The notes under the pieces are model-generated. The model saw only the letters and a program-made list of their open reading frames with translations. It was not told where the DNA came from and ran no database searches. A DNA stretch of 64,000 nt from Bacteroidota bacterium (GTDB lineage Bacteria; Bacteroidota; Bacteroidia; Chitinophagales; Saprospiraceae). This document shows positions 27,252 to 59,913 of the stretch, in pieces. Location: NCBI GenBank assembly GCA_039028895.1, contig JBCCHF010000013.1:4360-68359 (forward strand), read 5' to 3'. Within the stretch, counting starts at the first letter, position 1. The number at the start of each line of letters is the position of its first letter. The position numbers and the translations under genes were made by a program.

Positions 27252-28208
27252 ATGACGATTTTCGAGAATGACATGGTAGATGCGGCCAAATTTTTGCAGT
27301 TAATTAACAATAGGCGAAAGTTTATTTTAATTTCTGGAGTATTGGGTTTTGTCATAGCACTTTTGGCCAGCCTGGCTATTCCTGTAAAGTATAAAGCCTC
27401 TGGAACCTTGTACCCCGGCAATGTGGAACGGTGGGATGAACTGTTGAAAAAACCGCAATTCGGTACCGAACTTGATGCCCGGCATCTGCTCGAGATTTTC
27501 GATTCGGATCGACTCAGGGAAGCCATTTTCCAAAAGCATGATTTAATTGCCTATTATGCCTTGGATACTACCATTGCTGGCTGGCCCCACCAATTACATC
27601 AATCCTTCCGGAAGGATATCACCTATTCCCGCTCTGTCAATAGGGCCATCATCATAACGGCAACAATGAAAGACCCTGAACTTGCGGCAGGGGTAGTTAA
27701 TTCCATGATCTCGTTAAGTGATGAAGTCAGAGATACAATTTTTCGGGATAATATGGAGGCGGAGTTAAAATCATTAGAGTTGATTTACACAGCACAGGAG
27801 GCTCTTACAAAAAAAGTCCTTGATAGTATTTATCTCCTCAAACCACCTTCTGGAGCCGATGAAATTCTGTTCAACCAGGTGTTCACTACTGATTCATCCT
27901 TAGTTTTGGTCGGTGAGTCAGGCTATATTAACAGTCCACAACTGGAGCGACTTGCCAACCAGTATTTTCTGGAAAAAGCGACGCTTTCCAAATGGAAGGG
28001 TAGGGTAGACTCAGCCCAAACAAATTTCCAAAGGCCTTTGCCAAAAACTTATGTGCTAAGCTCAGCGAAACCTGCCTACGATAAGTCTTACGATTACTTG
28101 TGGAGAAATGCATTTGCAGGTGGACTGGCAGCCTTGTTTTTTGCCATTATCATTATTGCTTTTGACGATCGGTTTCAGATTTTCAGGACTCAAAAAGCGC
28201 AGGCATGA
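27252..28208 (+). CDS. Wzz-like polysaccharide chain-length determinant family protein
   Basis: 318 aa. N-terminal TM helix (ILISGVLGFVIALLASLAI) is followed by VKYKASGTLYP. The long periplasmic region is helical. C-terminal TM helix (FAGGLAALFFAIIIIAF). ATGA start/stop overlap with the next gene. Confidence 0.6.
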   Translation: MTIFENDMVDAAKFLQLINNRRKFILISGVLGFVIALLASLAIPVKYKASGTLYPGNVERWDELLKKPQFGTELDARHLLEIFDSDRLREAIFQKHDLIAYYALDTTIAGWPHQLHQSFRKDITYSRSVNRAIIITATMKDPELAAGVVNSMISLSDEVRDTIFRDNMEAELKSLELIYTAQEALTKKVLDSIYLLKPPSGADEILFNQVFTTDSSLVLVGESGYINSPQLERLANQYFLEKATLSKWKGRVDSAQTNFQRPLPKTYVLSSAKPAYDKSYDYLWRNAFAGGLAALFFAIIIIAFDDRFQIFRTQKAQA

Positions 28209-37517: not shown

Positions 37518-38468
37518 ATGAAAAATTTTCTTAATCACCTTTATTTCAATGAATTGAAAAGGGGCATCATAGAGGTGATGCTTTATTTCGAGGTGTTTTC
37601 ATATCCAATGAGCCGTGAAGAAGTTTTTCGTACGGTTAATCAAATTAACACTAATCAGGATCAGGTCAATGCAGAAATTGATGAATTGATCAATGAATCC
37701 ATTATTTATGAAAATGGTGGTTTTCTCATGACCAGACCAAAACCTGAGTGGGCTGAAGAGCGAAAAATCAAGAATCGAATGGCAGATCAGTATATTGAAA
37801 AAGCATATCGCATGGGCCGCCTGATTGGGTACTTCCCCTTTGTGCGGGCTGTAATGATATCCGGTTCGCTGTCAAAACATTGGATGACAGAGGATGGTGA
37901 CGTTGATTTTTTTATCGTTACCGAAAAGAGAAGACTCTGGATCGCGCGCACCCTGCTCGTATTATTCAAAAAAATATTCCTGCTAAATTCACATAAGTAC
38001 TTCTGCGTGAACTATTTTGTGGATGTTGATCACCTGGAAATAGAAGAAAAGAACAGGTTCACAGCCTCAGAGATCGTTACGTTACTTCCAGTAGTCAACA
38101 AGCCATTGTATTTGGAATTTTTGAAAGCAAATCAATGGATCAGGGGTATTTACCCAAATTTCCCCGTAAGGGATACTAGTAATACTACACCACTTAAAGC
38201 TTCGCTGCCCAAACTGATTATAGAAAAAATGCTGTCAACCCGCTTTGGCGACTGGCTTGATCGCTCATTTCTAAAGATGACTCTGAAACACTGGAATAAA
38301 AAGTTTGGTCATATGGATAAGGAGGAATTTGAAGTAGCGATGAAATCAAGAACATATGTTTCAAAACATCATCCTAACGCATTTCAAGCCAGAGTGCTTG
38401 AGGCAATGGCTAATAACCAGGTTCAATTTGAAGCATCCATTCTAAAAAAGATGCCAATGAGAAGCTAA
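37518..38468 (+). CDS. Hypothetical protein with wHTH-like N-terminus and polymerase-beta-type nucleotidyltransferase-like motif
   Basis: 316 aa. MISGSLSKHWMTEDGDVDFFIVT fits the G-S...D-x-D nucleotidyltransferase signature. The N-terminal ~70 aa (YPMSREEVFRTV...IDELINESIIYENGGFL) look wHTH-like. It is the first gene of the rSAM operon. The assignment is weak. Confidence 0.4.
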   Translation: MKNFLNHLYFNELKRGIIEVMLYFEVFSYPMSREEVFRTVNQINTNQDQVNAEIDELINESIIYENGGFLMTRPKPEWAEERKIKNRMADQYIEKAYRMGRLIGYFPFVRAVMISGSLSKHWMTEDGDVDFFIVTEKRRLWIARTLLVLFKKIFLLNSHKYFCVNYFVDVDHLEIEEKNRFTASEIVTLLPVVNKPLYLEFLKANQWIRGIYPNFPVRDTSNTTPLKASLPKLIIEKMLSTRFGDWLDRSFLKMTLKHWNKKFGHMDKEEFEVAMKSRTYVSKHHPNAFQARVLEAMANNQVQFEASILKKMPMRS

Positions 38469-38501
38469 CCGCTTATCTTTGCAATAAAGGTTCCCTGTTC
38501 A

Positions 38502-39968
38502 ATGGCAAATATTCTTTTTACCCACTCATATTTTTATCGATTTGACGAGAAGCAATGGGCTATGAAACAGCCATATCCGCCATATGGTACACTCTATGCT
38601 GCCGCAAAAATGCGGGAGGAGGGTCACCATGTAGCACTTTTTGACACTAACCTTGTGGTTTCTCCTGTTGAGATAAAGCCCATTCTGAAAAGTGAGCAAC
38701 CCGACTATCTGGTAATCTATGATGACGGGTTTAACTACCTGACTAAGATGTGCCTGACCAATATGCGGGAAGCTGCTTTTGAGTTGATCAAATTTGGTAA
38801 AGAAAACGCTTGTAAGGTAATTGTCTCGAGCTCTGATTCGACAGATCACCCTGATTTTTATCTTGAAAAAGGGGCTGATTTTATTCTTTTAGGAGAAGGA
38901 GAAGAAACGCTCAGTGAACTGGTCACAGCCATTGAGTCCGGCCAGCAGGATATGAGTTCTATTCTGGGTATTTGTTACCATTCCGAAACATTCGTTAAAA
39001 ATCCGAGAAGGCCCGTTATTCGCAATCTCGACAGCTTGCCTGACCCAGCATGGGATCTGGTAGATATCGATATGTATCGCAAGGTCTGGATGGAAGGAAA
39101 TGGATATTTTTCTTTAAATATTGCGACAACCAGGGGGTGCCCCTTTAAGTGTAATTGGTGTGCAAAACCCATTTATGGCAATCGATATAATTCCCGTTCA
39201 CCGGAAAGGGTAGCTAACGAAATCGAAATGCTGGTGTCAAAATTTGGTGCCCGCCATTTTTGGTTTAGTGATGATATATTCGGTTTAAAACCCGGATGGG
39301 TGCAATCGTTCAGAGATATTGTAAAGGCCAAAAATCTGCAGTTTAGCTATAAGATTCAGTCCAGGGTAGATTTGCTGCTTCAGGAAGATACGATCGCAGC
39401 ACTTGCTCAATCGGGTTTGAAAACCGTGTGGGTAGGTGCCGAATCAGGATCGCAGAAAATCCTCGATGCCATGGACAAAGGCACCAAGATCGAACAGATT
39501 TATGAAGCGACAGAATTACTGAAGCGCAAAGGTGTCGAGGTAGGATTTTTCCTTCAGTTTGGCTATCTCGGTGAAACAAGAGAAGATATTTCCAGTACTA
39601 TACAGATGGTGCTCGACTGCATGCCTGATGATATCGGGATATCTGTTTCTTACCCCTTGCCCGGCACCAAATTTTTCGAAATGGTGAAGGCCCAATTGGA
39701 TGACAAGCAAAACTGGTCGCACTCAGATGATCTGGCGATGATGTATAAAGGCACCTTCAGCCCTGATTTCTATCGACGTCTCCATCGGTTTGTCCATAAA
39801 ACATTCAGAAAACACCAGGGATTCGCAAATTTGAAAGGCATTTTAATGAACCCTACGGCAGTTAACCGATCTAAACTCAGGTCAGCGTTGGCTACAGTAT
39901 ATTATATCCCGGCAGCTGCCATCGACAATTACAAACTCAGACTTCTCGAAAAGCAAAGTGTTTCCTGA
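38502..39968 (+). CDS. B12-binding-domain radical SAM enzyme (rSAM-1)
   Basis: 488 aa. N-terminal cobalamin-binding-type Rossmann segment (ILFTHSYFYRFDEKQWAMKQPYPPYGTLYAAAKMREEGHHVALFD). CxxxCxxC cluster at C213/C217/C220 (TTRGCPFKCNWCAKP; tgc 39138..39140). Confidence 0.85.
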   Translation: MANILFTHSYFYRFDEKQWAMKQPYPPYGTLYAAAKMREEGHHVALFDTNLVVSPVEIKPILKSEQPDYLVIYDDGFNYLTKMCLTNMREAAFELIKFGKENACKVIVSSSDSTDHPDFYLEKGADFILLGEGEETLSELVTAIESGQQDMSSILGICYHSETFVKNPRRPVIRNLDSLPDPAWDLVDIDMYRKVWMEGNGYFSLNIATTRGCPFKCNWCAKPIYGNRYNSRSPERVANEIEMLVSKFGARHFWFSDDIFGLKPGWVQSFRDIVKAKNLQFSYKIQSRVDLLLQEDTIAALAQSGLKTVWVGAESGSQKILDAMDKGTKIEQIYEATELLKRKGVEVGFFLQFGYLGETREDISSTIQMVLDCMPDDIGISVSYPLPGTKFFEMVKAQLDDKQNWSHSDDLAMMYKGTFSPDFYRRLHRFVHKTFRKHQGFANLKGILMNPTAVNRSKLRSALATVYYIPAAAIDNYKLRLLEKQSVS

Positions 39969-40768
39969 TTATCAAAGCTGCTTTTGACCATATTGCCAAA
40001 GATTACGACCAGTCATTTTCCGATACTATAACGGGAAAACGACAGCGAGCACTTGTTCATGCCTACCTGGCAGAGTATTTTGTTGACATTCCCGGCCAAA
40101 AAGTGCTGGAGCTAAATTGCGGTACGGGTATAGATGCCTGCTGGATAGCGGCAAGAGGGCATACGGTTCTCGCAACTGATGTTTCAAAGGAAATGGTCAA
40201 TTTGACAGATATAAGAGTGGACCGCTTAGGGTTTGAAAAATATATTGATACCAGTGTTTGTGGGTTTTCCGAGATTCATACTTTGAATGACAAGGGCCCA
40301 TTCAATCTCATATTCTCTAATTTTGGAGGCTTGAATTGCATTGATTCGAATAGTATGGCTATGCTATCTATGGCATTACGAAAAATGCTTAAGCCTGGCG
40401 GCAGTCTCATCATAGTTTTGATGGGGCGTAAGTGTTGGTGGGAAAGCCTCTATTTTTTGTTAAAAGGCAACCCAAAAGAAGCATTTCGAAGGAAGAATGG
40501 AGGACCGGTTGAAGCAAATGTTGGAGACAAAAAGATCCTTACATGGTATTATGATCCGCAAGAATATTCAAACCTTTTTTCAAACCAATTCAAGACAAAA
40601 GTTATTAAACCTGTAGGCATTGCTTTACCGCCTTCCTACATGGATAGCATTTTTTCAAAAAGGAAATGGTTGATGAATTGGTTGACAAAATGTGAAAATA
40701 GGTTCCACAACAAATCTTACCTGGCCAAATGGTCGGACCATTACTTAATTCACCTTGAAGCGATCTGA
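39968..40768 (+). CDS. Class I SAM-dependent methyltransferase (MT-1; true start unclear, no ATG upstream of motif I)
   Basis: The ORF track starts at GTG 40103 (M/VLELNCGTG), which is motif I itself. The same frame is open back to 39965 and encodes IIKAAFDHIAKDYDQSFSDTITGKRQRALVHAYLAEYFVDIPGQK, a typical MTase N-terminus. The only candidate starts there are CTG 39965 and ATT 39968, which overlap the rSAM-1 TGA. Confidence 0.7.
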   Translation: MIKAAFDHIAKDYDQSFSDTITGKRQRALVHAYLAEYFVDIPGQKVLELNCGTGIDACWIAARGHTVLATDVSKEMVNLTDIRVDRLGFEKYIDTSVCGFSEIHTLNDKGPFNLIFSNFGGLNCIDSNSMAMLSMALRKMLKPGGSLIIVLMGRKCWWESLYFLLKGNPKEAFRRKNGGPVEANVGDKKILTWYYDPQEYSNLFSNQFKTKVIKPVGIALPPSYMDSIFSKRKWLMNWLTKCENRFHNKSYLAKWSDHYLIHLEAI

Positions 40769-42174
40769 TGGAGGTGTTGTTTACACATGGTTATTATATT
40801 GAGGAAGATCCGAAGGAGCAGGAGATCATGCGCCCTTACCCGCCTTTGGGTATTCTTTACCTGTCAGCGTGGCTGGAAAAGCATGGCGTTGATAATGAAG
40901 TGTACGACACTACATTTTCCAATAAAAAAGCGCATAAGGCATTTCTTGTCAAAAATAAACCCGGAATCCTCGCCATCTATACCAATCTGATGACCAAAGT
41001 CAATGTCATCGAATTGGTCAAATACATCAGGGCCGAACCTGATTTGAACGAAACCTTTATTGTCATAGGTGGACCTGACGTTACTTATAATATCGAAAAT
41101 TACCTGGGTTCAGGAGCGAATGTCATCGTTTTTGGAGAGGGTGAACAGACCATGCTCGAGATTGTAAACTCTGTCAAAAATGGGGTGCGGTCAGCGTTAT
41201 TCCACATTCCCGGGGTGGCATTCTTCGATGAAGGAGGTGATGTTGTAAAAACGGAAGCCAGGAAACGCATCCGCCCGGTAGACGGTCTGCCTATCCCTAA
41301 CAGGAAGAAGATTGACCTTAACAAATACCTGGAAGTCTGGAAAACACATCACGGTAAGAGTACTGTTTCAATCAGCACCCAAAGAGGATGTCCGTATACC
41401 TGCAGATGGTGTAGTACTGCTGTTTATGGACAGAGTTACAGACGTCGTTCCCCTGAAGTGGTCGTCTCTGAAATGAAATACCTGAAGGAAAACTATAACC
41501 CTGATAGCCTTTGGTTTGTGGATGATGTATTTACGGTCAGTCATAAATGGCTGAAAACTTTCAGAGATGCCTTGGAAAAAGCCAATATCAATATTCCTTT
41601 TGAATGTATAACCCGCGCAGATCGCCTTGACCCAGAAGTCATCAGCGTATTGAAAGCAAGTGGCTGTTTTCGGGTCTGGATTGGTGCTGAAAGTGGCTCA
41701 CAAAAAATCATAGATGCCATGGACAGGCGGGTAGATGTTAACCATGTCCGCAATATGATAATCGAAGCCAGGCAACAAGGACTTGAAGCCGGTACGTTCA
41801 TCATGTTAGGCTATCCCGGGGAAACCGAAACGGATATTTATGAAACGGTCAATCACCTAAAAATATCCAATCCCGATCTGTTCACAATAACAGTGGCTTA
41901 CCCGATTAAAGGAACAGGTCTTTACGAGGAAATTGAAGCCCAGCGCCTTAATAACCTGGATTGGCAAACCAGCACTGATCGCCAGATCGACTTTAAGCGG
42001 ACTTATCCAAGAAAGTATTATGATTACGCGGTACGGTGGGTGGTCAATTCGGTAAACTACAATAAACAGAAGTTGAATGGCAGACAATTGACTCCCCATG
42101 CATTGAAAATGCTTGCCAAAAGTTCCCTGGCCAGGGCAGGTATGATCTTTCATCGACAATTTGGCAAAGGATAG
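40768..42174 (+). CDS. B12-binding-domain radical SAM enzyme (rSAM-2, paralogue of rSAM-1)
   Basis: 468 aa. TGATG stop/start overlap at 40766..40770. N-terminus VLFTHGYYIEEDPKEQEIMRPYPPLGILYLSAWLEKHG parallels rSAM-1. Cluster C208/C212/C215 (STQRGCPYTCRWCST; tgt 41389..41391). Confidence 0.85.
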   Translation: MEVLFTHGYYIEEDPKEQEIMRPYPPLGILYLSAWLEKHGVDNEVYDTTFSNKKAHKAFLVKNKPGILAIYTNLMTKVNVIELVKYIRAEPDLNETFIVIGGPDVTYNIENYLGSGANVIVFGEGEQTMLEIVNSVKNGVRSALFHIPGVAFFDEGGDVVKTEARKRIRPVDGLPIPNRKKIDLNKYLEVWKTHHGKSTVSISTQRGCPYTCRWCSTAVYGQSYRRRSPEVVVSEMKYLKENYNPDSLWFVDDVFTVSHKWLKTFRDALEKANINIPFECITRADRLDPEVISVLKASGCFRVWIGAESGSQKIIDAMDRRVDVNHVRNMIIEARQQGLEAGTFIMLGYPGETETDIYETVNHLKISNPDLFTITVAYPIKGTGLYEEIEAQRLNNLDWQTSTDRQIDFKRTYPRKYYDYAVRWVVNSVNYNKQKLNGRQLTPHALKMLAKSSLARAGMIFHRQFGKG

Positions 42175-42177
42175 ATT

Positions 42178-42957
42178 ATGAAGGCTTTTCTTGAGAAATT
42201 TCCTGGAAATGGCGGTGTCTATTGCCTTTCAAAACCTGACAACAGTTTCGAAGACAGCTACATTGCTATTCGCAAAAAAGAGCAACGCGTCCTGTCTGAC
42301 GAGCAAGTCAGTCAATTACCCCGAGTGGATAGGTCTAATCCTCATTTTGACGAATGGCAAATCAGAAATCGTTCATTCGAGCGTGTCATCAATTATCTGA
42401 TGGATGATCCCAAAAGCCAACTACGGATTCTAGACCTGGGGTGCGGTAATGGCTGGTTTACCCACCGACTAGCTGCATTAGGCCATTTGGAAGTATTGGG
42501 CCTGGATATCAATATGATTGAATTGAAACAGGCTGCCAGGATCTTCACCACTGAGAAATGCCGTTTTGCCTACGGAGATATCGCTGTTTTGGACTTTGAT
42601 AACCTAAAGTTTGATCGCATTTTTCTGAATGCTTCAGTTCAATATTTCTCAAATCTTACCAGACTCCTCAAAAGGTTGTTAAACCTGCTCAACAAAGGAG
42701 GGGAGATTCATATTATCGATTCGCCATTTTATAAGTCTGTTGATATCCCCGCTGCAAAGGCACGTTCTTTTTCCTATTACAAAACCATGGGTTTTGAGAC
42801 TATGAGTACCAGCTATTTTCATCATAGTTTGGAAGAAATTAGCCAGTTTGATCCTTTCTATCTGTACCAACCATCCACTGGATTCAAGAAATTTTTGGAT
42901 AGATTTGGGAAAAAAGACACCCCGTTTCCATGGATCAGGATCTCAAAGGAAAATTAG
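42178..42957 (+). CDS. Class I SAM-dependent methyltransferase (MT-2)
   Basis: 259 aa, starting 3 nt after the rSAM-2 stop. Motif I is ILDLGCGNGWFTHRLA and the post-I acidic residue sits in VLGLDIN. Confidence 0.8.
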   Translation: MKAFLEKFPGNGGVYCLSKPDNSFEDSYIAIRKKEQRVLSDEQVSQLPRVDRSNPHFDEWQIRNRSFERVINYLMDDPKSQLRILDLGCGNGWFTHRLAALGHLEVLGLDINMIELKQAARIFTTEKCRFAYGDIAVLDFDNLKFDRIFLNASVQYFSNLTRLLKRLLNLLNKGGEIHIIDSPFYKSVDIPAAKARSFSYYKTMGFETMSTSYFHHSLEEISQFDPFYLYQPSTGFKKFLDRFGKKDTPFPWIRISKEN

Positions 42958-44462
42958 ACTTCACACTGCCGAATAGGGTGTTCATCACATTGGTTGTAAT
43001 GATTTTGGGTGTCAGGTTCTTACATTTTGGCGAATTGATTGATAATCCCCACGCCTGGAGGCAATGTGATACGGCAAACTATATTTTCGATTTTTTTAAA
43101 AATGGCATCGATATCTTTGAGCCTGCTGTATGCTGGATGGGGGCTCATAAGACCGTAATCCTTGAGTTCCCGTTACCGGAAGCTATGGTAGCTGTTTTCT
43201 ACCACGTTTTTGGAGAACATCATTGGGTCGCCCGGATGTTTTTCCTGCTGTGCTTTTGCGGAGCAGCCTATTATTTTTTTCTAATTATACTAGAACTTTT
43301 CGGTAAAACCAGGGCCAGGGTCGCTACTTTGATTTACCTTTCCCTACCATTGTCCATGTTTTATTCCAGAGCGATCCATATCGACTTCTTTGCTGTTTTT
43401 ATGGCGCATGGAATGTTTTTTCATTGGATGAAAGCCGTAAAAAATCAGGAGGCCAAGCATTGGATAGCAGGGGGTCTGTTTACTACTCTAGCATTTTTAG
43501 TAAAAGCACCTTATGCCTTTTTTCTCGCCTTGCCCCTTTTGATGATGGCAATACAGGAAAAACAGTTTGTTAAAAGTTTGAAGTGGACTTTTCTTTTAAT
43601 GTTGCCGATCATTCTATTTGTGCTTTGGCGTAGTTATGCTACCGGGGTAAACAGCTTGGCACCTGACTGGCATTACCTTGAAGCTTACCGCAAATTTGAT
43701 GAGAATACGTTCTGGTTTTTCGGCACTCTCGAACAACGACTTTCTTTATGGAATTGGCTAAGACTGGGTGAACGGCTGGCATTTGATGTCGTTGGTCATG
43801 CTGGGGTCTTGTTTGTCATTATTGGGTTTTTCCAGATGTGGTGGCTGAAACAGTACCCTTTTCTACTCGCATGGATGCTCGGGTTGTTGGTCTACTTATG
43901 TACCTTTTTTAACCTCAATCTGGTTCATGATTATTACCAAATCCCATTTTTACCAATTGCTTCTACCCTGATTACAATAGGCATTTTCTCCCTTTCGGGA
44001 AATGCAATGGTAGTCAGAATGAACATAAGTCGTTTTGCTTTTTTCGGGGGATTAGGCATCGTAATACTTGGCAATATCACTAATGCAGAACTGCGCTATT
44101 ATAAAACCGAAGATCAAAGGGTGCTTCAAGAAATAGGGGAGATCATAGAAGGGACAACCCCAACATCAGCGTTACCAGTAATCACCTATAATGATTTTGA
44201 TGTGCGTAATCCGCAAATCCTTTACCGAGCCAGAAGAAATGGTTGGTCAGTACCACTTCGAAACTGGAATGCAGAAGCCATAAACTTATTGACAGAAAAT
44301 GAAGGGGCTACACATTTTGTTTTTGTCGGTCCTGGTCCACCGGACGGGGCAATTGGGAAATTTACTCGGCGATTGAATTTGATTAATTCAACGAAACTGA
44401 ACAACACATATCTGAAAGTCTTTATTTGGACCCTATCGTATCAGGATGAAATTGAAAATTGA
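42930..44462 (+). CDS. Polytopic GT-C-fold glycosyltransferase, PMT_2/ArnT-like (polyprenyl-phosphate-sugar dependent)
   Basis: 510 aa with about 11-12 TM helices. The first periplasmic loop motif AWRQCDTANYIFDFF resembles the WRQxDTA motif of ArnT/PMT_2-type enzymes. A C-terminal soluble domain is present. It overlaps MT-2 by 28 nt. Confidence 0.6.
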   Translation: MDQDLKGKLDFTLPNRVFITLVVMILGVRFLHFGELIDNPHAWRQCDTANYIFDFFKNGIDIFEPAVCWMGAHKTVILEFPLPEAMVAVFYHVFGEHHWVARMFFLLCFCGAAYYFFLIILELFGKTRARVATLIYLSLPLSMFYSRAIHIDFFAVFMAHGMFFHWMKAVKNQEAKHWIAGGLFTTLAFLVKAPYAFFLALPLLMMAIQEKQFVKSLKWTFLLMLPIILFVLWRSYATGVNSLAPDWHYLEAYRKFDENTFWFFGTLEQRLSLWNWLRLGERLAFDVVGHAGVLFVIIGFFQMWWLKQYPFLLAWMLGLLVYLCTFFNLNLVHDYYQIPFLPIASTLITIGIFSLSGNAMVVRMNISRFAFFGGLGIVILGNITNAELRYYKTEDQRVLQEIGEIIEGTTPTSALPVITYNDFDVRNPQILYRARRNGWSVPLRNWNAEAINLLTENEGATHFVFVGPGPPDGAIGKFTRRLNLINSTKLNNTYLKVFIWTLSYQDEIEN

Positions 44463-44510
44463 CGATTTCAAATTAAAGATATTAAATATCTGATGTTAGA
44501 CGAGGTACCG

Positions 44511-45665
44511 TCAACGAAGCTTAAAATGAATCACTTTACGATCTTCCTTGCCAACGGTGATCGTCTGAGGATAAGGATCGGCATTAACAACACCATCTGC
44601 TTTGCCTGCAAAATCGAGGATTACCCTGTAAGTTCCTGGAGGTAGGTTTTTTACGACATAACCACAATTAGCATCAAAGCGTGCTGATTTTGAAATACCT
44701 GTATTGGGGTTATAGAAACTCACCTGATAAATTGTACAGCTCCGGGTATTTGAAAGGGTTCCTGAGACCTGATTGTTGATCGGTTGTTCCTTGTGTTTGA
44801 TAGTGAAATCGAATTTCGTAGTTTGTCCTGCTTTTACATGAACCACGTTGTCAATCTGACCTGGAAGGATTTGGTAATTATCCTTGTGTGGGTAATTAAT
44901 TAAAACACTGACGAGGTATTTCCCGGGTTCGAGGTTGTTCAAGGTGTAGGCACAAGATTCAGGGGCAGGGTCGAGGAACTGGCTTTTTCGTTCTCCTTCT
45001 TTTAAAATGATAACCGCATATTTGGTACAATGCTGAGTCAGGCCTTTGGCTCTTCCGGTGATCGCGCCTTTGGTAAGGTGGTTTGGTGCATTCATTTCTA
45101 CCTTAGACTGAAGTTTTAGGTTAGGATTAACCTTGGCTTTTTCGATAGCCAGGTTATTATTACTGATTACCTTATCCTTGGGTTTTTCTATTTTTTCGAC
45201 AGAAGGCTTAGTTGGCTTTTTGCTAAAACTATAGATCTTTCTGTCCACTCCTGATTTGGATTTGGACGTCATGTCAAGTCGTAATATCCCTTTGCCAGGC
45301 ATTGATATGGTAAACGAAACTTTTTCAGGGTAGTTTGAAAAGACGCCGGTTACTTCATCCGTATTTTGTACCGGATCAGCCTGTGGATTTTGGATCGAGT
45401 GAGGTACTCCTTTAGATTCTCCCCAAAAGCATTTGCCGGAAGCTTCTGATTCGCATTGCCTAAAAAAATAAACCATGAGCAAGTCAGCATCCACTTGCTT
45501 TATGACCAGTTCTGGAACCAAAGCATCTTTGTTGACAGGCCACCATACCCCAGTATAATCAAGCATACCCTGCGCATGAGTTGAGGATATTAAAGTAAGA
45601 TTCAAAAAGCAAACGGTAAACAAAATGGATAAGACTGAACGAAGTCCGTTGATTACATAGTTCAT
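44511..45665 (-). CDS. Secreted hypothetical protein with two C-terminal carboxypeptidase-regulatory-like beta-sandwich repeats
   Basis: The ORF is 44511..45713. The Met at 45665 gives the signal peptide MNYVINGLRSVLSILFTVCFLNLTLISSTHAQ. Two related modules: CAYTLNNLEPGKYLVSVL...VKAGQTTKFDFTI and CGYVVKNLPPGTYRVILD...VGKEDRKVIHFKL. Confidence 0.5.
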   Translation of the reverse strand: MNYVINGLRSVLSILFTVCFLNLTLISSTHAQGMLDYTGVWWPVNKDALVPELVIKQVDADLLMVYFFRQCESEASGKCFWGESKGVPHSIQNPQADPVQNTDEVTGVFSNYPEKVSFTISMPGKGILRLDMTSKSKSGVDRKIYSFSKKPTKPSVEKIEKPKDKVISNNNLAIEKAKVNPNLKLQSKVEMNAPNHLTKGAITGRAKGLTQHCTKYAVIILKEGERKSQFLDPAPESCAYTLNNLEPGKYLVSVLINYPHKDNYQILPGQIDNVVHVKAGQTTKFDFTIKHKEQPINNQVSGTLSNTRSCTIYQVSFYNPNTGISKSARFDANCGYVVKNLPPGTYRVILDFAGKADGVVNADPYPQTITVGKEDRKVIHFKLR

Positions 45666-45735
45666 GGTTAGTTGGTTATAGGTTTTACAAATTTGAATAA
45701 GGGCTAACACCAAAGTTATCAGTAATTTAAGGACA

Positions 45736-47073
45736 TTATAACTCCAAACGTTGTGCCAAAGCAGAATAAAGCTTATTCTCTTTCGTCATAAACCTGTTTC
45801 TGAAGCTACTGCTTTGTGTATACGTCTGTTTGAAAACGGTTGAGGCCATGCGCGCATCTTTGGCGAGGTAAAGCCGTCCGCCATACTCAAGCACTATCCT
45901 GTCGAGTGCATCTAACATCGCAAAAAGTCCTTTTGTGATCTTGAAGTCAAGTGCCAATGTGTATCCTTGCATCGGAAAAGCGAGCGGACTTTGGTTGTGG
46001 CCGGGGCCCATGAGTTTCAAAACAGTCAGGAAAGATCCGAAACCAGAATCCCTGATTTTTGAAAGTAGTTCACTGATGCCTTTTTTTCCTTCTGATTGTG
46101 GTAACACGCATTGATATTGAGTAAAACCCTTCTTCCCATAGATCCTATTCCAGTGTAATAGACTGTCCAGTGGATAAAAATATGGTTCATAATGCACAAA
46201 GGATTGCTGGATATCTGCCCGTTGTCGTTGATAATAAAGAAAGTTAAAAGTCTTAATGCTAAATGAGTTTAAAAGCATTCCAGGAAGGAAAAAAGGAACA
46301 GAAATGGCCTTTTTTTTTCGAAACAAAAGGGGAGAAGCGGTATACTGCTCTGGGAGTTCCTCTACAGATGCATGTTCGCCATTGAGTAATAAGCCGCGGC
46401 CCAGTTTTTCGCCTTTGGCCATGCAGTCTATCCATGCCACCGAATAGGTGTCATCAACAGCATTATCGATTTTTTCCAGTGTTTCAGATAGCGTTTTTGT
46501 TTTATAACTGGTTTGCTTGATAAAGGCTGTTTGAACCTTTCGTAGCCTGAACGTAGCCGTTATGATGATGCCGGTCAATCCCATTCCACCACAAGTGGCC
46601 CAAAATAAAGCCGGGTTTTTAACTTTGCTGCATTCCACTACTTTCTCGTCTGCCTGGATTAACCGGAAGCTTTCGAGGAAATCGGAAAAACTGCCTTCCT
46701 TGTGATGGTTCTTCCCATGAATGTCTGCAGCAATGGCTCCCCCAACTGTAATGAACTTGGTGCCAGGAGACACACTTAGAAAAAATCCTTTTGGAACTAC
46801 CAGTTGTAAAATGTCAGCTAATAAAACTCCTGCCTGGCAGGTAATGATGCCGTTTTCTATATCAAAATCCAGAATCTGGTTCAGACTTAGCGTGCTAACC
46901 GTATTGTGAGCTAAAGCTGCATCGCCATAACACCTACCATTGCCGCGGGCGATCAAATTTCCTTTCTGGTTTAACCAGGTTTGTAGTTCATTAAGATGTC
47001 CAGGGTAATATAGGTTGGACTCCATTTTGGGATAATTGCCCCAATTGGCGATATGTTTCTTTTCAGAATGCAT
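45736..47073 (-). CDS. FAD-binding (PCMH-type) oxidoreductase, DprE1-like
   Basis: The ORF is 45736..47112. The Met at 47073 forms a TAATG overlap with the UbiA-like stop. NWGNYP...ARGNGRCYGDAAL parallels the GLGRSYGD segment of decaprenylphosphoryl-ribose oxidases. FAD_binding_4-like N-terminal half. Confidence 0.7.
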   Translation of the reverse strand: MHSEKKHIANWGNYPKMESNLYYPGHLNELQTWLNQKGNLIARGNGRCYGDAALAHNTVSTLSLNQILDFDIENGIITCQAGVLLADILQLVVPKGFFLSVSPGTKFITVGGAIAADIHGKNHHKEGSFSDFLESFRLIQADEKVVECSKVKNPALFWATCGGMGLTGIIITATFRLRKVQTAFIKQTSYKTKTLSETLEKIDNAVDDTYSVAWIDCMAKGEKLGRGLLLNGEHASVEELPEQYTASPLLFRKKKAISVPFFLPGMLLNSFSIKTFNFLYYQRQRADIQQSFVHYEPYFYPLDSLLHWNRIYGKKGFTQYQCVLPQSEGKKGISELLSKIRDSGFGSFLTVLKLMGPGHNQSPLAFPMQGYTLALDFKITKGLFAMLDALDRIVLEYGGRLYLAKDARMASTVFKQTYTQSSSFRNRFMTKENKLYSALAQRLEL

Positions 47074-47963
47074 TAAAAGACATACAATAAAAGTGCAAAG
47101 GTGATGATCCAAAGGAGCAGGATAAATCGCAAAACCGGATTTTGTAAAAATAGGCGAGTAGGTTGTCCACTTTCGCCATGAACAAAGGTTAATTGGAGGT
47201 ATTTCAGCATTCCGAAGATGACAAAGAAACTAGTGAAGTAGACATAGTTGTTGCCAATACGATCGGTAACTTCCGGTGATAAAGTATACATGAGATAAGC
47301 CACAGTAGTCACAGCTGACACAAAGACAATTGCAATATCGATGAATTGAAGATTATAGCCATTAAGCGCTGGACGAATATCAGTAGTGGTTTTTTCAGAA
47401 AGGATAAATTCATCGCGCCGCTTGCCTAGTCCGATCATCATCGCGCCGAGGAATGTCATGATGACAAGCCATTCCGAAATCGGAACATCCGCTAACTCAC
47501 CACCAGCGAAGATCCTTAACAGGAAACCCATCGCTAAGACGAAAAGGTCCACAAACGCAATTTTTTTCAAAAACAGGGTGTAAGAAATAGTCAGAACAAG
47601 ATAACTGCCAAGCAATATGCTGAATGTCGTTATTCCAATAGAGATCATCAAAACAAGCGCAATGACAAGGCACACCATTCCTGCGAAAATAGCCTCCTTG
47701 GAAGTAACCAGTCCGGCAGCTAATGGCCTCAATTTCTTTTTTGGATGTAGTCGATCAGCCTCAATGTCATAGTAGTCATTAAAAATATAGATGCTACTGG
47801 CCACTAGGCAAAAAGCGAAGAATCCAGCTAATAAAATAAGGACAAGAGACTGGTCAGTTATCACCTGGGCAAAGAATGCCGGCATAAAGATCAACAGGTT
47901 TTTGATCCATTGTTCCGGCCTGAGTAGGCGGATAATTGGCGGGATGGAAGCTTGCTGAGCCAT
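47073..47963 (-). CDS. UbiA-family prenyltransferase, decaprenyl-phosphate phosphoribosyltransferase-like
   Basis: 296 aa with about 8-9 TM helices. Asp-rich motif IFNDYYDIEADRLHPKKKLRPLAAG. Size and motif context resemble the DPPR-synthase branch of UbiA enzymes. Confidence 0.75.
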   Translation of the reverse strand: MAQQASIPPIIRLLRPEQWIKNLLIFMPAFFAQVITDQSLVLILLAGFFAFCLVASSIYIFNDYYDIEADRLHPKKKLRPLAAGLVTSKEAIFAGMVCLVIALVLMISIGITTFSILLGSYLVLTISYTLFLKKIAFVDLFVLAMGFLLRIFAGGELADVPISEWLVIMTFLGAMMIGLGKRRDEFILSEKTTTDIRPALNGYNLQFIDIAIVFVSAVTTVAYLMYTLSPEVTDRIGNNYVYFTSFFVIFGMLKYLQLTFVHGESGQPTRLFLQNPVLRFILLLWIITFALLLYVF

Positions 47964-58823: not shown

Positions 58824-59663
58824 TTAAAATTCCCAGCTTAACCTGGTCAGGCCTAGTCCAGTATCAAGTTTAACATTTGCTTTTTTGCGATGTTTCTGGG
58901 CTACTTTTTTGTGAATGGTAGGAATGAAATATCCAACTGCTCCGCCAATAAGGTAACCTGCAATGACATCAGTGTAGAAGTGTTTTCCGGCAGCAACGCG
59001 CATTCCGGCAACAGTGGCAGGTACTGCAGCAGCGAGTCCCCAAACTACATAACGCCATTTGGAGTCTGGGTGATAATCGGCAAAAAGTCTGGCCGAAAAA
59101 AACGACATGGACGACACCATGGCCGTATGCCCTGAAAAGAAGGATACTTTTGCGCCTTTACCATCTTTGAAAGGACTATACGGTACATCAGGATTATAAA
59201 CCAGGGGTCGGGTTCGTTTGAAAGCGCCTTTTGAGAACCTGACCAGGGCTTCTGTCATAAATAGAGTTTCCGCAGTCAATGCACCAAGAACCAGAAAATC
59301 CTTTCTCATTTTATTGTCAGCCAAAACAAATATGACAGGGTAAAGTGGTGCAGTATTCAAAAACCAATCGCTGACATCAGCAATGCTTTCATTGAAAAAA
59401 CCAGTTACACCCCGATCAAAAGGATTGATATCCATAGGGTCGAGGTCGGCAATATCCATCTCTGTCAGTGGCATTATCTTTTGGGTGAGACTAATCCCCC
59501 CTAATTCGAAAGCAAGGCTTGTAAAGACAATCGGGATGTCAGCCTGGTAACTTAAACGATATGGAGATTGCTCTTTCTGGGCTGCTGAAATCTGTGGAAT
59601 TAGCCAGATAAACAAAACAAAGAGCAAACTGTATAAGATTGATTTAGACGATAAAAAAGACAT
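58824..59663 (-). CDS. PAP2-family (type 2 phosphatidic acid phosphatase) membrane phosphatase
   Basis: The ORF is 58824..59720. The Met at 59663 begins the signal/TM MSFLSSKSILYSLLFVLFIWLI. PAP2 motifs: KRTRP, FFSGHT, RVAAGKHFYTDV. Confidence 0.8.
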   Translation of the reverse strand: MSFLSSKSILYSLLFVLFIWLIPQISAAQKEQSPYRLSYQADIPIVFTSLAFELGGISLTQKIMPLTEMDIADLDPMDINPFDRGVTGFFNESIADVSDWFLNTAPLYPVIFVLADNKMRKDFLVLGALTAETLFMTEALVRFSKGAFKRTRPLVYNPDVPYSPFKDGKGAKVSFFSGHTAMVSSMSFFSARLFADYHPDSKWRYVVWGLAAAVPATVAGMRVAAGKHFYTDVIAGYLIGGAVGYFIPTIHKKVAQKHRKKANVKLDTGLGLTRLSWEF

Positions 59664-59913
59664 TTTAAATAAATATAATTTGAGTTCATCCTGAATGTAC
59701 AACATATTTTTTTCTTCCATTCAAAAATCGAAAGTTGCCTGATTTTTGCCGGAGTGATAAGTAATTACCTTTTGCCTTAAACAAGGGCATGAAATTCCCA
59801 CTCATATTTTTGACTTGGTAAACCTGAATAACCAGATTTTATTTTCGAAATTAATTGATTTTTAAAAATAAAATTTCGAATCGAAAAATAATTGACATTT
59901 GTACAAAATTTTA

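Follow-up and report, generated by a model that had tools for sequence, protein, structure and literature searches.

Lipid-linked pentofuranose donors, a drug target, were long considered peculiar to mycobacteria; since 2024 they have been known as a general bacterial route to the decoration of surface glycans. The mycobacterial decaprenyl-phospho-arabinose pathway comprises Rv3806c, Rv3807c, DprE1 (Rv3790), DprE2 (Rv3791), and GT-C arabinosyltransferases. Among Gram-negative O antigens, a three-component extracytoplasmic pentofuranose glycosylation with auxiliary epimerases was described for Citrobacter youngae O1/O2 by Kelly et al. 2024 (PMC11127046). In these systems, the auxiliary epimerase genes set which pentose is added, and DprE1/E2 homologues occur in those containing arabinofuranose (Araf) (PMC11127046). 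We analyzed a stretch of 64,000 nucleotides (nt) from a Saprospiraceae genome (Bacteroidota; GenBank assembly GCA_039028895.1), hereafter the window, in which the gene of a UbiA-type polyprenyl-phosphate phosphoribosyltransferase is coupled to that of a DprE1-type FAD oxidase. Genes of the DprE2 type and of the HAD (phosphoribose phosphatase) type are absent at the genome level. The module itself is ordinary, and the reductase-less state with DprE1 retained is a rare variant of a common system. No paper describing DprE1 kept without both DprE2 and the HAD phosphatase was found in the literature searched, which, its coverage being incomplete, is weak evidence of novelty.

The window lies on contig C13 (131 kb) of a 6.6-Mb draft assembly consisting of 102 contigs with an estimated completeness of 99.79%. 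Its content is Bacteroidota-like, with SprB repeats and type IX secretion sorting domains present. An initial annotation of the window had placed four genes at 42930–47963, in agreement with the map of open reading frames (ORFs). The two genes forming the core of the module were as follows:

47073–47963, minus strand: UbiA-family polyprenyl-phosphate phosphoribosyltransferase (PPPRS/DPPR-synthase type), 296 amino acids (aa); NCBIfam and PDB sequence matches
45736–47073, minus strand: DprE1-type FAD-dependent polyprenyl-phospho-ribose 2'-oxidase, 445 aa; NCBIfam NF053785 and PDB 4aut alignment

The TAA stop codon of the UbiA gene (47075–47073) shares its last A with the ATG (47073–47071) of the FAD enzyme gene (gtc ttt TAATG cat tct); the TAATG coupling of the two genes, noted earlier, was read directly in the sequence.

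The UbiA protein, which contains NDYYDIEADRLHPKKKLRPLAAG, missed both equivalog cut-offs, with 208.7 bits on NF008977 (cut-off of 234) and 204.9 bits on NF008978 (cut-off of 207). On other prenyltransferase models it scored 47 bits (haem O synthase), 43 bits (UbiA of the ubiquinone type), and at most 47 bits (chlorophyll). Because its scores lie narrowly under the cut-offs, yet about 150 bits over any other UbiA subfamily, the protein is treated here as a putative divergent member of the wider phosphoribosyltransferase clade. The phosphoribosyltransferase type proposed earlier thus stands, with about 205–209 bits versus no more than 47 bits on the haem O and ubiquinone models. Sequence matches in the PDB were confined to two Rv3806c-type synthase entries, the best being 8j8j (127 bits); in the alignment with the latter, covering residues 8–290, the NDxxDxxxD motif was intact (NDYYDIEAD aligned with NDVRDVEAD). 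The protein retained 42 of the 46 near-invariant columns of the family, its four changes being near the top of the family range.

The FAD enzyme, containing the ARGNGRCYGD segment, scored 406.9 bits on the DprE1 model NF053785 and 56 bits on the sugar-lactone oxidase model; this difference (407 versus 56 bits) supports the earlier assignment to the DprE1 type and not to lactone oxidases. The cut-off of NF053785 (500 bits) was missed. None of the Bacteroidota relatives of DprE1 reached it either, because the model is tuned to Actinobacteria. The match to DprE1 of Mycobacterium smegmatis (PDB 4aut) amounted to 278 bits. The PCMH-type FAD domain, the HGKNHH segment, and the catalytic lysine (AKD; K418 in Mycobacterium tuberculosis) were all conserved. 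In an alignment of 80 DprE1 relatives, the catalytic lysine was present in all 80, and the window protein kept 86 of the 87 near-invariant columns. The gene is the sole one of the DprE1 type in the genome.

In mycobacterial DprE1, Cys387 governs drug sensitivity and not catalysis. Conservation of this active-site cysteine, the benzothiazinone target, was named in the initial annotation as the condition for testing DprE1 inhibitors; alanine was found instead (GYTLALDF). The same position in 80 non-actinobacterial relatives was occupied by Ala (75), Thr (4), or Ser (1), and never by Cys. Therefore, covalent DprE1 inhibitors should not act on these enzymes.

A DprE2-type short-chain dehydrogenase/reductase (SDR) was sought genome-wide with NF053786, NF005489, and a custom profile built from 61 operon-linked SDRs. 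A sequence taken as DprE2 of M. tuberculosis scored 427 bits on NF053786, identifying this model as the DprE2 family; the sequence also served as a tblastn query and as one of the four seeds for collecting the 61 SDRs. SDRs adjoining DprE1 in relatives belonged to NF005489 (PRK07102), scoring 286–298 bits against a cut-off of 267. True DprE2 partners reached 163–178 bits on NF053786, 286–298 on NF005489, and 162–332 on the custom profile (held-out partners: genome G019, 317; G006, 301; M. tuberculosis, 182; G004, 162; the partner in G056 scored 332). No such SDR was found in the genome of the window, where the best scores on the three models were 81.3, 103.6, and 110 bits, respectively, the first of them given by generic SDRs. 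The earlier observation that the window lacks a DprE2-type SDR hence extends to the contig and to the whole 99.8%-complete genome. Profile searches and an N-terminal Rossmann-motif scan of all ORFs revealed no classical SDR on the 131-kb contig; the lone nucleotide-binding-type Rossmann match there resembled by eye a sugar-phosphate nucleotidyltransferase and was discarded as a local reductase. A tblastn search of the genome with DprE2 of the relatives detected no pseudogene remnant. The gaps flanking the gene that follows DprE1, of 70 and 48 nt, are too short for one.

The remaining SDR matches were discarded as partners as well. The top, yet non-specific, match of every DprE2 profile was a 622-aa ORF (636-aa open frame) on contig C6 (C6:78111–79979) with a long acidic linker and a C-terminal classical SDR; its N-terminal region looks TIR-like by eye. 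In this ORF the SDR is fused to the end of a long N-terminal stretch, and relatives possessing DprE2 gave comparable SDR matches in long ORFs. One of the two SDR matches on C1 reads by eye like FabG. Those on C2, C65, and C7 were PRK06181-like or of other families and were located beside a helicase, proteases, and a sulfotransferase.

A genome-wide search for the HAD phosphoribose phosphatase with a profile of 26 operon-linked HADs gave a single match, at 63 bits: the HAD domain within a PlsB-like acyltransferase fusion encoded on contig C27. This absence was overlooked in the initial annotation, as were the published systems outside Actinobacteria (PMC11127046). In the C27 protein (1084 aa; region C27:34616–45300), whose HAD domain was the part tested with the profile, a HAD can be made out by eye together with a PlsB-like acyltransferase and another acyltransferase region. 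Genes of a PCMH-type FAD protein (527 aa) and of a PAP2 paralogue are nearby, and the region is possibly an ether-lipid or unusual phospholipid locus.

It is very improbable that DprE2 and the HAD phosphatase are merely hidden in assembly gaps. The draft is indeed divided into 102 contigs; however, its completeness is 99.79%, the canonical slot after DprE1 has been sequenced in full and is taken by a different gene, and even gene fragments at the ends of contigs would be picked up by six-frame searches. Moreover, the syntenic metagenomic contig L148, described below, lacks DprE2 and HAD at that position too.

DprE1-type proteins are widespread: at least 5852 were found at E ≤ 1e-100, and relatives with 45–57% identity were found in Bacteroidota, Cyanobacteriota, Acidobacteriota, Nitrospirota, Pseudomonadota, and other phyla. 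The usual gene order in the best 80 genomic loci was UbiA–DprE1–SDR, often followed by HAD. No SDR was within reach of DprE1 in 15 of these 80 loci; 13 of the 15 genomes hold a DprE2-type SDR elsewhere (116–220 bits), and two metagenome-assembled genomes (MAGs) hold none, although MAGs without DprE2 may simply be incomplete. A DprE2-type SDR was kept in 78 of the 80 genomes encoding a relative of the window DprE1. In the taxonomic family of the window, DprE1 is patchy: of the 24 other genera 5 have it, and the congener does not. An SDR adjoins DprE1 in G004, G006, and G019; G009 (99% complete) and G020 (79% complete) have none. The four DprE2-less genomes included in the DprE1 tree (this one, G009, G041, and G045) did not form a common clade; they took four separate positions, which points to independent losses of DprE2. 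In a DprE2-less Saprospiraceae MAG (locus L075), no reductase was found among the neighbours of UbiA–DprE1, which were polytopic membrane proteins instead.

Two further arrangements were recorded during this survey. Protein P0156 (688 aa) is a DprE1 homologue (52% identical) with adh_short, adh_short_C2, and KR domains, apparently a single-chain DprE1–SDR fusion. Locus L044 (G004:C39, 8336–12480) encodes a much more divergent DprE1-like/SDR pair with 27% identity to the window DprE1 and 83 bits of the SDR on the DprE2 model. This pair lies between a GT2 and a PMT_2-like gene, a HAD–UbiA fusion of G004 being located on another contig, and may represent a branch of its own with some other lipid-linked sugar as substrate.

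The UbiA–DprE1 pair is surrounded in the window by the following features:

42930–44462, plus strand: GT-C glycosyltransferase (PMT_2; ArnT-like fold), 510 aa, presumed user of a lipid-linked pentose; PF13231, AlphaFold model
44511–45665, minus strand: orphan secreted protein, 384 aa from ATG 45665 (400 aa from TTG 45713); Pfam PF13620, internal repeat
37518–42957, plus strand: genes of an unknown protein, a B12-radical-SAM (S-adenosylmethionine) protein (rSAM), a methyltransferase (MT), a second B12-rSAM, and a second MT, co-directional with GT-C; Pfam and NCBIfam matches
58824–59720, minus strand: PAP2 phosphatase, a mere candidate for 5-phosphate removal; PF01569, motifs

The orphan gene starts 70 nt downstream of the FAD enzyme gene on the same strand. 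As previously stated, the GT-C gene converges on the UbiA/FAD/orphan trio, the stop codons of the GT-C and orphan genes being separated by 48 nt; the rSAM/MT run overlaps the GT-C start by 28 nt. The 48-nt gap contains an AT-rich perfect palindrome, AGATATTAAATATCT (44476–44490), which might serve both genes as a terminator or might be a binding site.

The orphan protein comprises a signal peptide-like N-terminus, an N-terminal domain, a Lys-rich linker, and two C-terminal CarboxypepD_reg-like beta-sandwich repeats. Its last repeat scored 31 bits on PF13620, just under the cut-off of 32.3. The internal repeat scored 62 versus 25 ± 5.6 for shuffles (z of about 6.6), which, together with the N-terminus, confirms the earlier description of a secreted protein with two beta-sandwich repeats. 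Among 5.8 billion proteins no homologue was found except the protein itself; one weak paralogue is encoded on contig C20 of the same genome. The gene sits in the slot held by DprE2 in relatives, and we can offer only guesses as to its product: a glycan-binding protein or an acceptor protein.

The PAP2 ORF was earlier regarded as an analogue of Rv3807c. Its family assignment was confirmed by the KRTRP, SGHT, and RVAAGKHFYTD motifs and by 65.8 bits on PF01569, but the proposed role was not: the gene is 11 kb from the module, three paralogues of 36–40% identity (four PAP2 genes in all) are present in the genome, no PAP2 was seen in 42 related cluster loci, and no dedicated NCBIfam family matched it, no direct comparison with the Rv3807c sequence having been made. 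A Pfam search of the window genes found neither a MATE nor a GtrA/SMR-type flippase; one GtrA-family gene is located on another contig, the MATE search having covered the window.

The closest GT-C homologues share the gene order of the window: Wzy-like, Wzy-TPR, unknown, rSAM, MT, rSAM, MT, and GT-C. The unknown/rSAM/MT core order was also found in L148, L149, L150, and G006, with rSAM identities of 53–73%. Across this cluster family (window positions 27252–58696 compared with L148, L149, L150/L153 of G056, L043 of G006, L151, and L157), SGNH, GT4, sulfotransferase, and 316-aa unknown genes were found as well. The closest match is L148, a metagenomic contig of 20.8 kb from ENA ERZ893782 (rSAMs 72–83%, UbiA 55%, and GT-C 48% identical). 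Its GT-C gene likewise converges on DprE1 and UbiA, which overlap by TGATG, and the DprE1 stop is 7 nt from the GT-C stop. The L148 contig, the only known part of its genome, contains neither an SDR nor the orphan gene. More distant versions in G006 and in the Saprospiraceae MAG G056 carry UbiA–DprE1–SDR inside the cluster. In L157, UbiA was found without DprE1 or SDR, between two GT-C genes of another, Alg9-like kind. No UbiA was found within 9 kb in L149 and L151, where the GT-C homologues are 42–46% identical. By comparison of these loci, the donor cassette is a variable part of a conserved tailoring locus, with four states: none seen within reach, UbiA, UbiA–DprE1, or UbiA–DprE1–DprE2. The pattern looks like a swapping of cassettes by which one surface glycan is diversified.

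No gene was common to the clusters without an adjacent DprE2 (window and L148) and absent from G006 and G056. The rSAM and MT enzymes, suggested earlier as a replacement of DprE2, are unlikely in this role because they coexist with DprE2 in sister clusters. The same point bears on the possibility that the real lipid-linked donor is the 2-keto-pentofuranose left by DprE1 acting on its own, or a derivative of it that cluster enzymes have C-methylated or changed in some other way, giving a glycan with an unusual pentos-2-ulose-derived residue. The absence of a DprE2-type reductase from a 99.8%-complete genome, the maintenance of a translationally coupled pair in two diverged clusters, and the richness of the locus in B12-rSAM and SAM methyltransferases are all consistent with such a donor. 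A related GT-C system can work with different pentose donors (PMC11127046), and in vitro the keto intermediate DPX can be detected when DprE1 acts alone (PMC9993113). However, the rSAM/MT set is not specific to the reductase-less state, the keto form has been called unstable, with channelling within a DprE1–DprE2 complex suggested by the authors (PMC9993113), and no precedent for a keto-pentofuranose lipid donor was found in the literature searched. We consider a keto donor rather unlikely. A still bolder version appears quite improbable: in this lineage, and perhaps in L148, G009, and two MAG lineages, DprE1 would act without DprE2, and the keto-pentofuranose would be a branch point to a new surface sugar, either moved as an ulose by GT-C or trapped by SAM/B12-radical-SAM methyltransferases as a branched or methylated pentofuranose.

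The overlap of stop and start codons is kept both here (TAATG) and in the diverged L148 (TGATG), which argues for upkeep of the pair with no DprE2 beside it. Another view is that the module is a relic or a reduced form, in which DprE2 and HAD were lost and the arabinose branch stopped; UbiA and GT-C would then deliver ribofuranose and DprE1 would be dispensable, or the pair would have no role at all. A joint loss of DprE2 and HAD would fit a single deletion right after DprE1, judging from the 7-nt distance between the stops in L148 and from the orphan gene at this place in the window. The donor cassette varies across the cluster family, and loss of the epimerase switches the pentose in Citrobacter O1/O2 (PMC11127046). 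The window UbiA, with its four near-invariant changes, is near the top of the family range; DprE1 of L148 and of G009 (a long branch), for which no DprE2 was found, each carry 7–8 changes at near-invariant positions. But the window DprE1 has lost one near-invariant residue of 87 and none of the catalytic ones, and both ORFs remain intact and coupled. If DprE1 were active with no enzyme to consume its product, the ribose donor would, furthermore, drain into a dead-end lipid, and such a lipid-linked product should, by extension of published work (PMC3937683), be selected against. A relic or reduced state is unlikely, though less so than a keto donor.

Some of the changes at near-invariant sites are shared by DprE1 of L148 and G009: T to I, H to L or P in HGKNHH, E to D, and F to Y. 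These common substitutions may result from common descent or from convergent change after the loss of the partner.

The GT-C protein scored 56 bits on PF13231. Its AlphaFold model (predicted local distance difference test, pLDDT, of 92.5) confirmed the GT-C fold and had ArnT (5ezm) as the best fold match in the PDB, with a template modelling (TM) score of 0.64. Further matches were ALG12, oligosaccharyltransferases, and AftA, with AftA/AftB/Emb well below ArnT. Sequence and profile searches against the PDB gave nothing, the matches coming from the fold search alone. At least 345 homologues, mostly from Bacteroidota and usually annotated as GT39, were found, and 37 residues were invariant in an alignment of 43 sequences. 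Homologues with 38–42% identity are encoded in a DprE1–HAD–GT-C operon (L052) and in a UbiA–DprE1–SDR–GT-C operon (L116). Protein P0015 (696 aa) from a Bacteroidota MAG is a natural HAD::GT-C fusion, the HAD part of which is 51% identical to the L052 protein and the GT-C part 42% identical to the window GT-C. This fusion is Rosetta-stone evidence that ties the GT-C family to the pathway of lipid-linked phosphoribose. The proposed tie of GT-C to the donor pathway was thereby strengthened at the level of the family; use of the donor by the enzyme itself is predicted from fold and linkage.

It is hardly probable that the UbiA–DprE1 pair serves another acceptor pathway while GT-C uses another lipid-linked sugar, their adjacency in a mosaic glycan locus being incidental. 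The GT-C homologues (42–46% identical) that share the rSAM/MT cluster yet have no UbiA closer than 9 kb, as well as UbiA of L157 with its two Alg9-like GT-C neighbours, would agree with this. On the other hand, UbiA–DprE1 recurs in four cases of the cluster family (the window, L148, G006, and G056), and the two operons and the fusion described above involve this same GT-C family.

The reading that we tentatively prefer, at somewhat less than an even chance, is that the pair is a working, truncated UbiA–DprE1–DprE2–HAD cassette, whose keto product an unlinked, non-orthologous reductase would convert into an arabinofuranose donor for GT-C. The UbiA enzyme, as its family suggests, would move phosphoribose from phosphoribosyl pyrophosphate (PRPP) onto polyprenyl phosphate. 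The 5-phosphate would then be removed by a phosphatase other than the usual HAD, for which PAP2 is a mere candidate. The DprE1-type flavoenzyme, judging by its family and conserved catalytic residues, would oxidise C2', giving the 2-keto intermediate. Reduction of this intermediate to the arabino form would be the task of an NAD(P)H reductase, most likely among the approximately 30 other SDRs of the genome. After flipping, and on the periplasmic side, the ArnT-fold GT-C would attach the pentofuranose to a surface glycan or a protein. The setting would be a surface-glycan tailoring locus of Bacteroidota with Wzy-like genes, B12-radical-SAM/methyltransferase pairs, GT4s, SGNH enzymes, and a sulfotransferase.

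A working pathway is favoured because the pair is intact, coupled, and conserved. DprE1 of M. tuberculosis alone halts at the keto intermediate, and the NAD(P)H reductase DprE2 is required (PMC9993113). An unlinked reductase would be normal, since 13 of the 15 genomes without a DprE1-adjacent SDR encode it elsewhere. Several points weigh against a working cassette of this kind. No reductase candidate stands out, the best SDRs of the genome (81–110 bits) being of other families and in unrelated contexts, and all 13 genomes with an unlinked reductase use an orthologous DprE2-type SDR and no other family. The usual HAD phosphatase for the phosphatase step was not found in the whole genome with the 26-HAD profile. 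The cluster contains no flippase, the sole GtrA-like gene being on another contig. In some sister clusters GT-C occurs without UbiA within 9 kb, and therefore it may not strictly depend on this donor. Taken together, the initial annotation remains valid for the enzyme identities, the GT-C tie, and the DprE2 gap; the role of PAP2 and the replacement of DprE2 by rSAM/MT enzymes are unsupported or weakened.

Like the systems of Kelly et al. 2024, the window encodes a UbiA-type polyprenyl phosphoribose synthase predicted to make a pentofuranose donor for a surface-glycan GT-C, and gain or loss of epimerases diversifies related loci, as across the cluster family of the window. Unlike these systems, it has neither a fused nor a separate HAD phosphoribose phosphatase, its cluster lacks a MATE flippase, and of the DprE1/E2 epimerase it has the oxidase half alone; its GT-C is PMT_2/ArnT-like, no comparison with GT136 having been made. 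Shared with the mycobacterial pathway are the Rv3806c-type and DprE1-type enzymes with conserved catalytic residues and a GT-C as the likely user. The window differs from it by the lack of DprE2 in the genome, by Ala in place of the benzothiazinone-target Cys, by scores just under the equivalog cut-offs, and by its setting, Gram-negative surface-glycan tailoring in contrast to the essential cell-wall arabinan. With the UbiA–DprE1–DprE2 (PRK07102-type SDR)–HAD operon, which is widespread in the five phyla named above, it has in common orthologous UbiA and DprE1 (45–57% identity) in the same order and tightly packed; in contrast to that operon, SDR and HAD are gone from both locus and genome, and an orphan secreted protein is encoded after DprE1.

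The window adds nothing to the general picture of pentofuranose donors; it gives a clean genome-level case of the oxidase without the reductase. If the module is functional, either an unrelated reductase can partner DprE1, which would bear on the essentiality and inhibition of DprE2, or a keto-pentose-derived sugar would be present on Bacteroidota surfaces. If the module is a relic, it would capture the decay of a donor cassette as a mechanism of glycan diversification.

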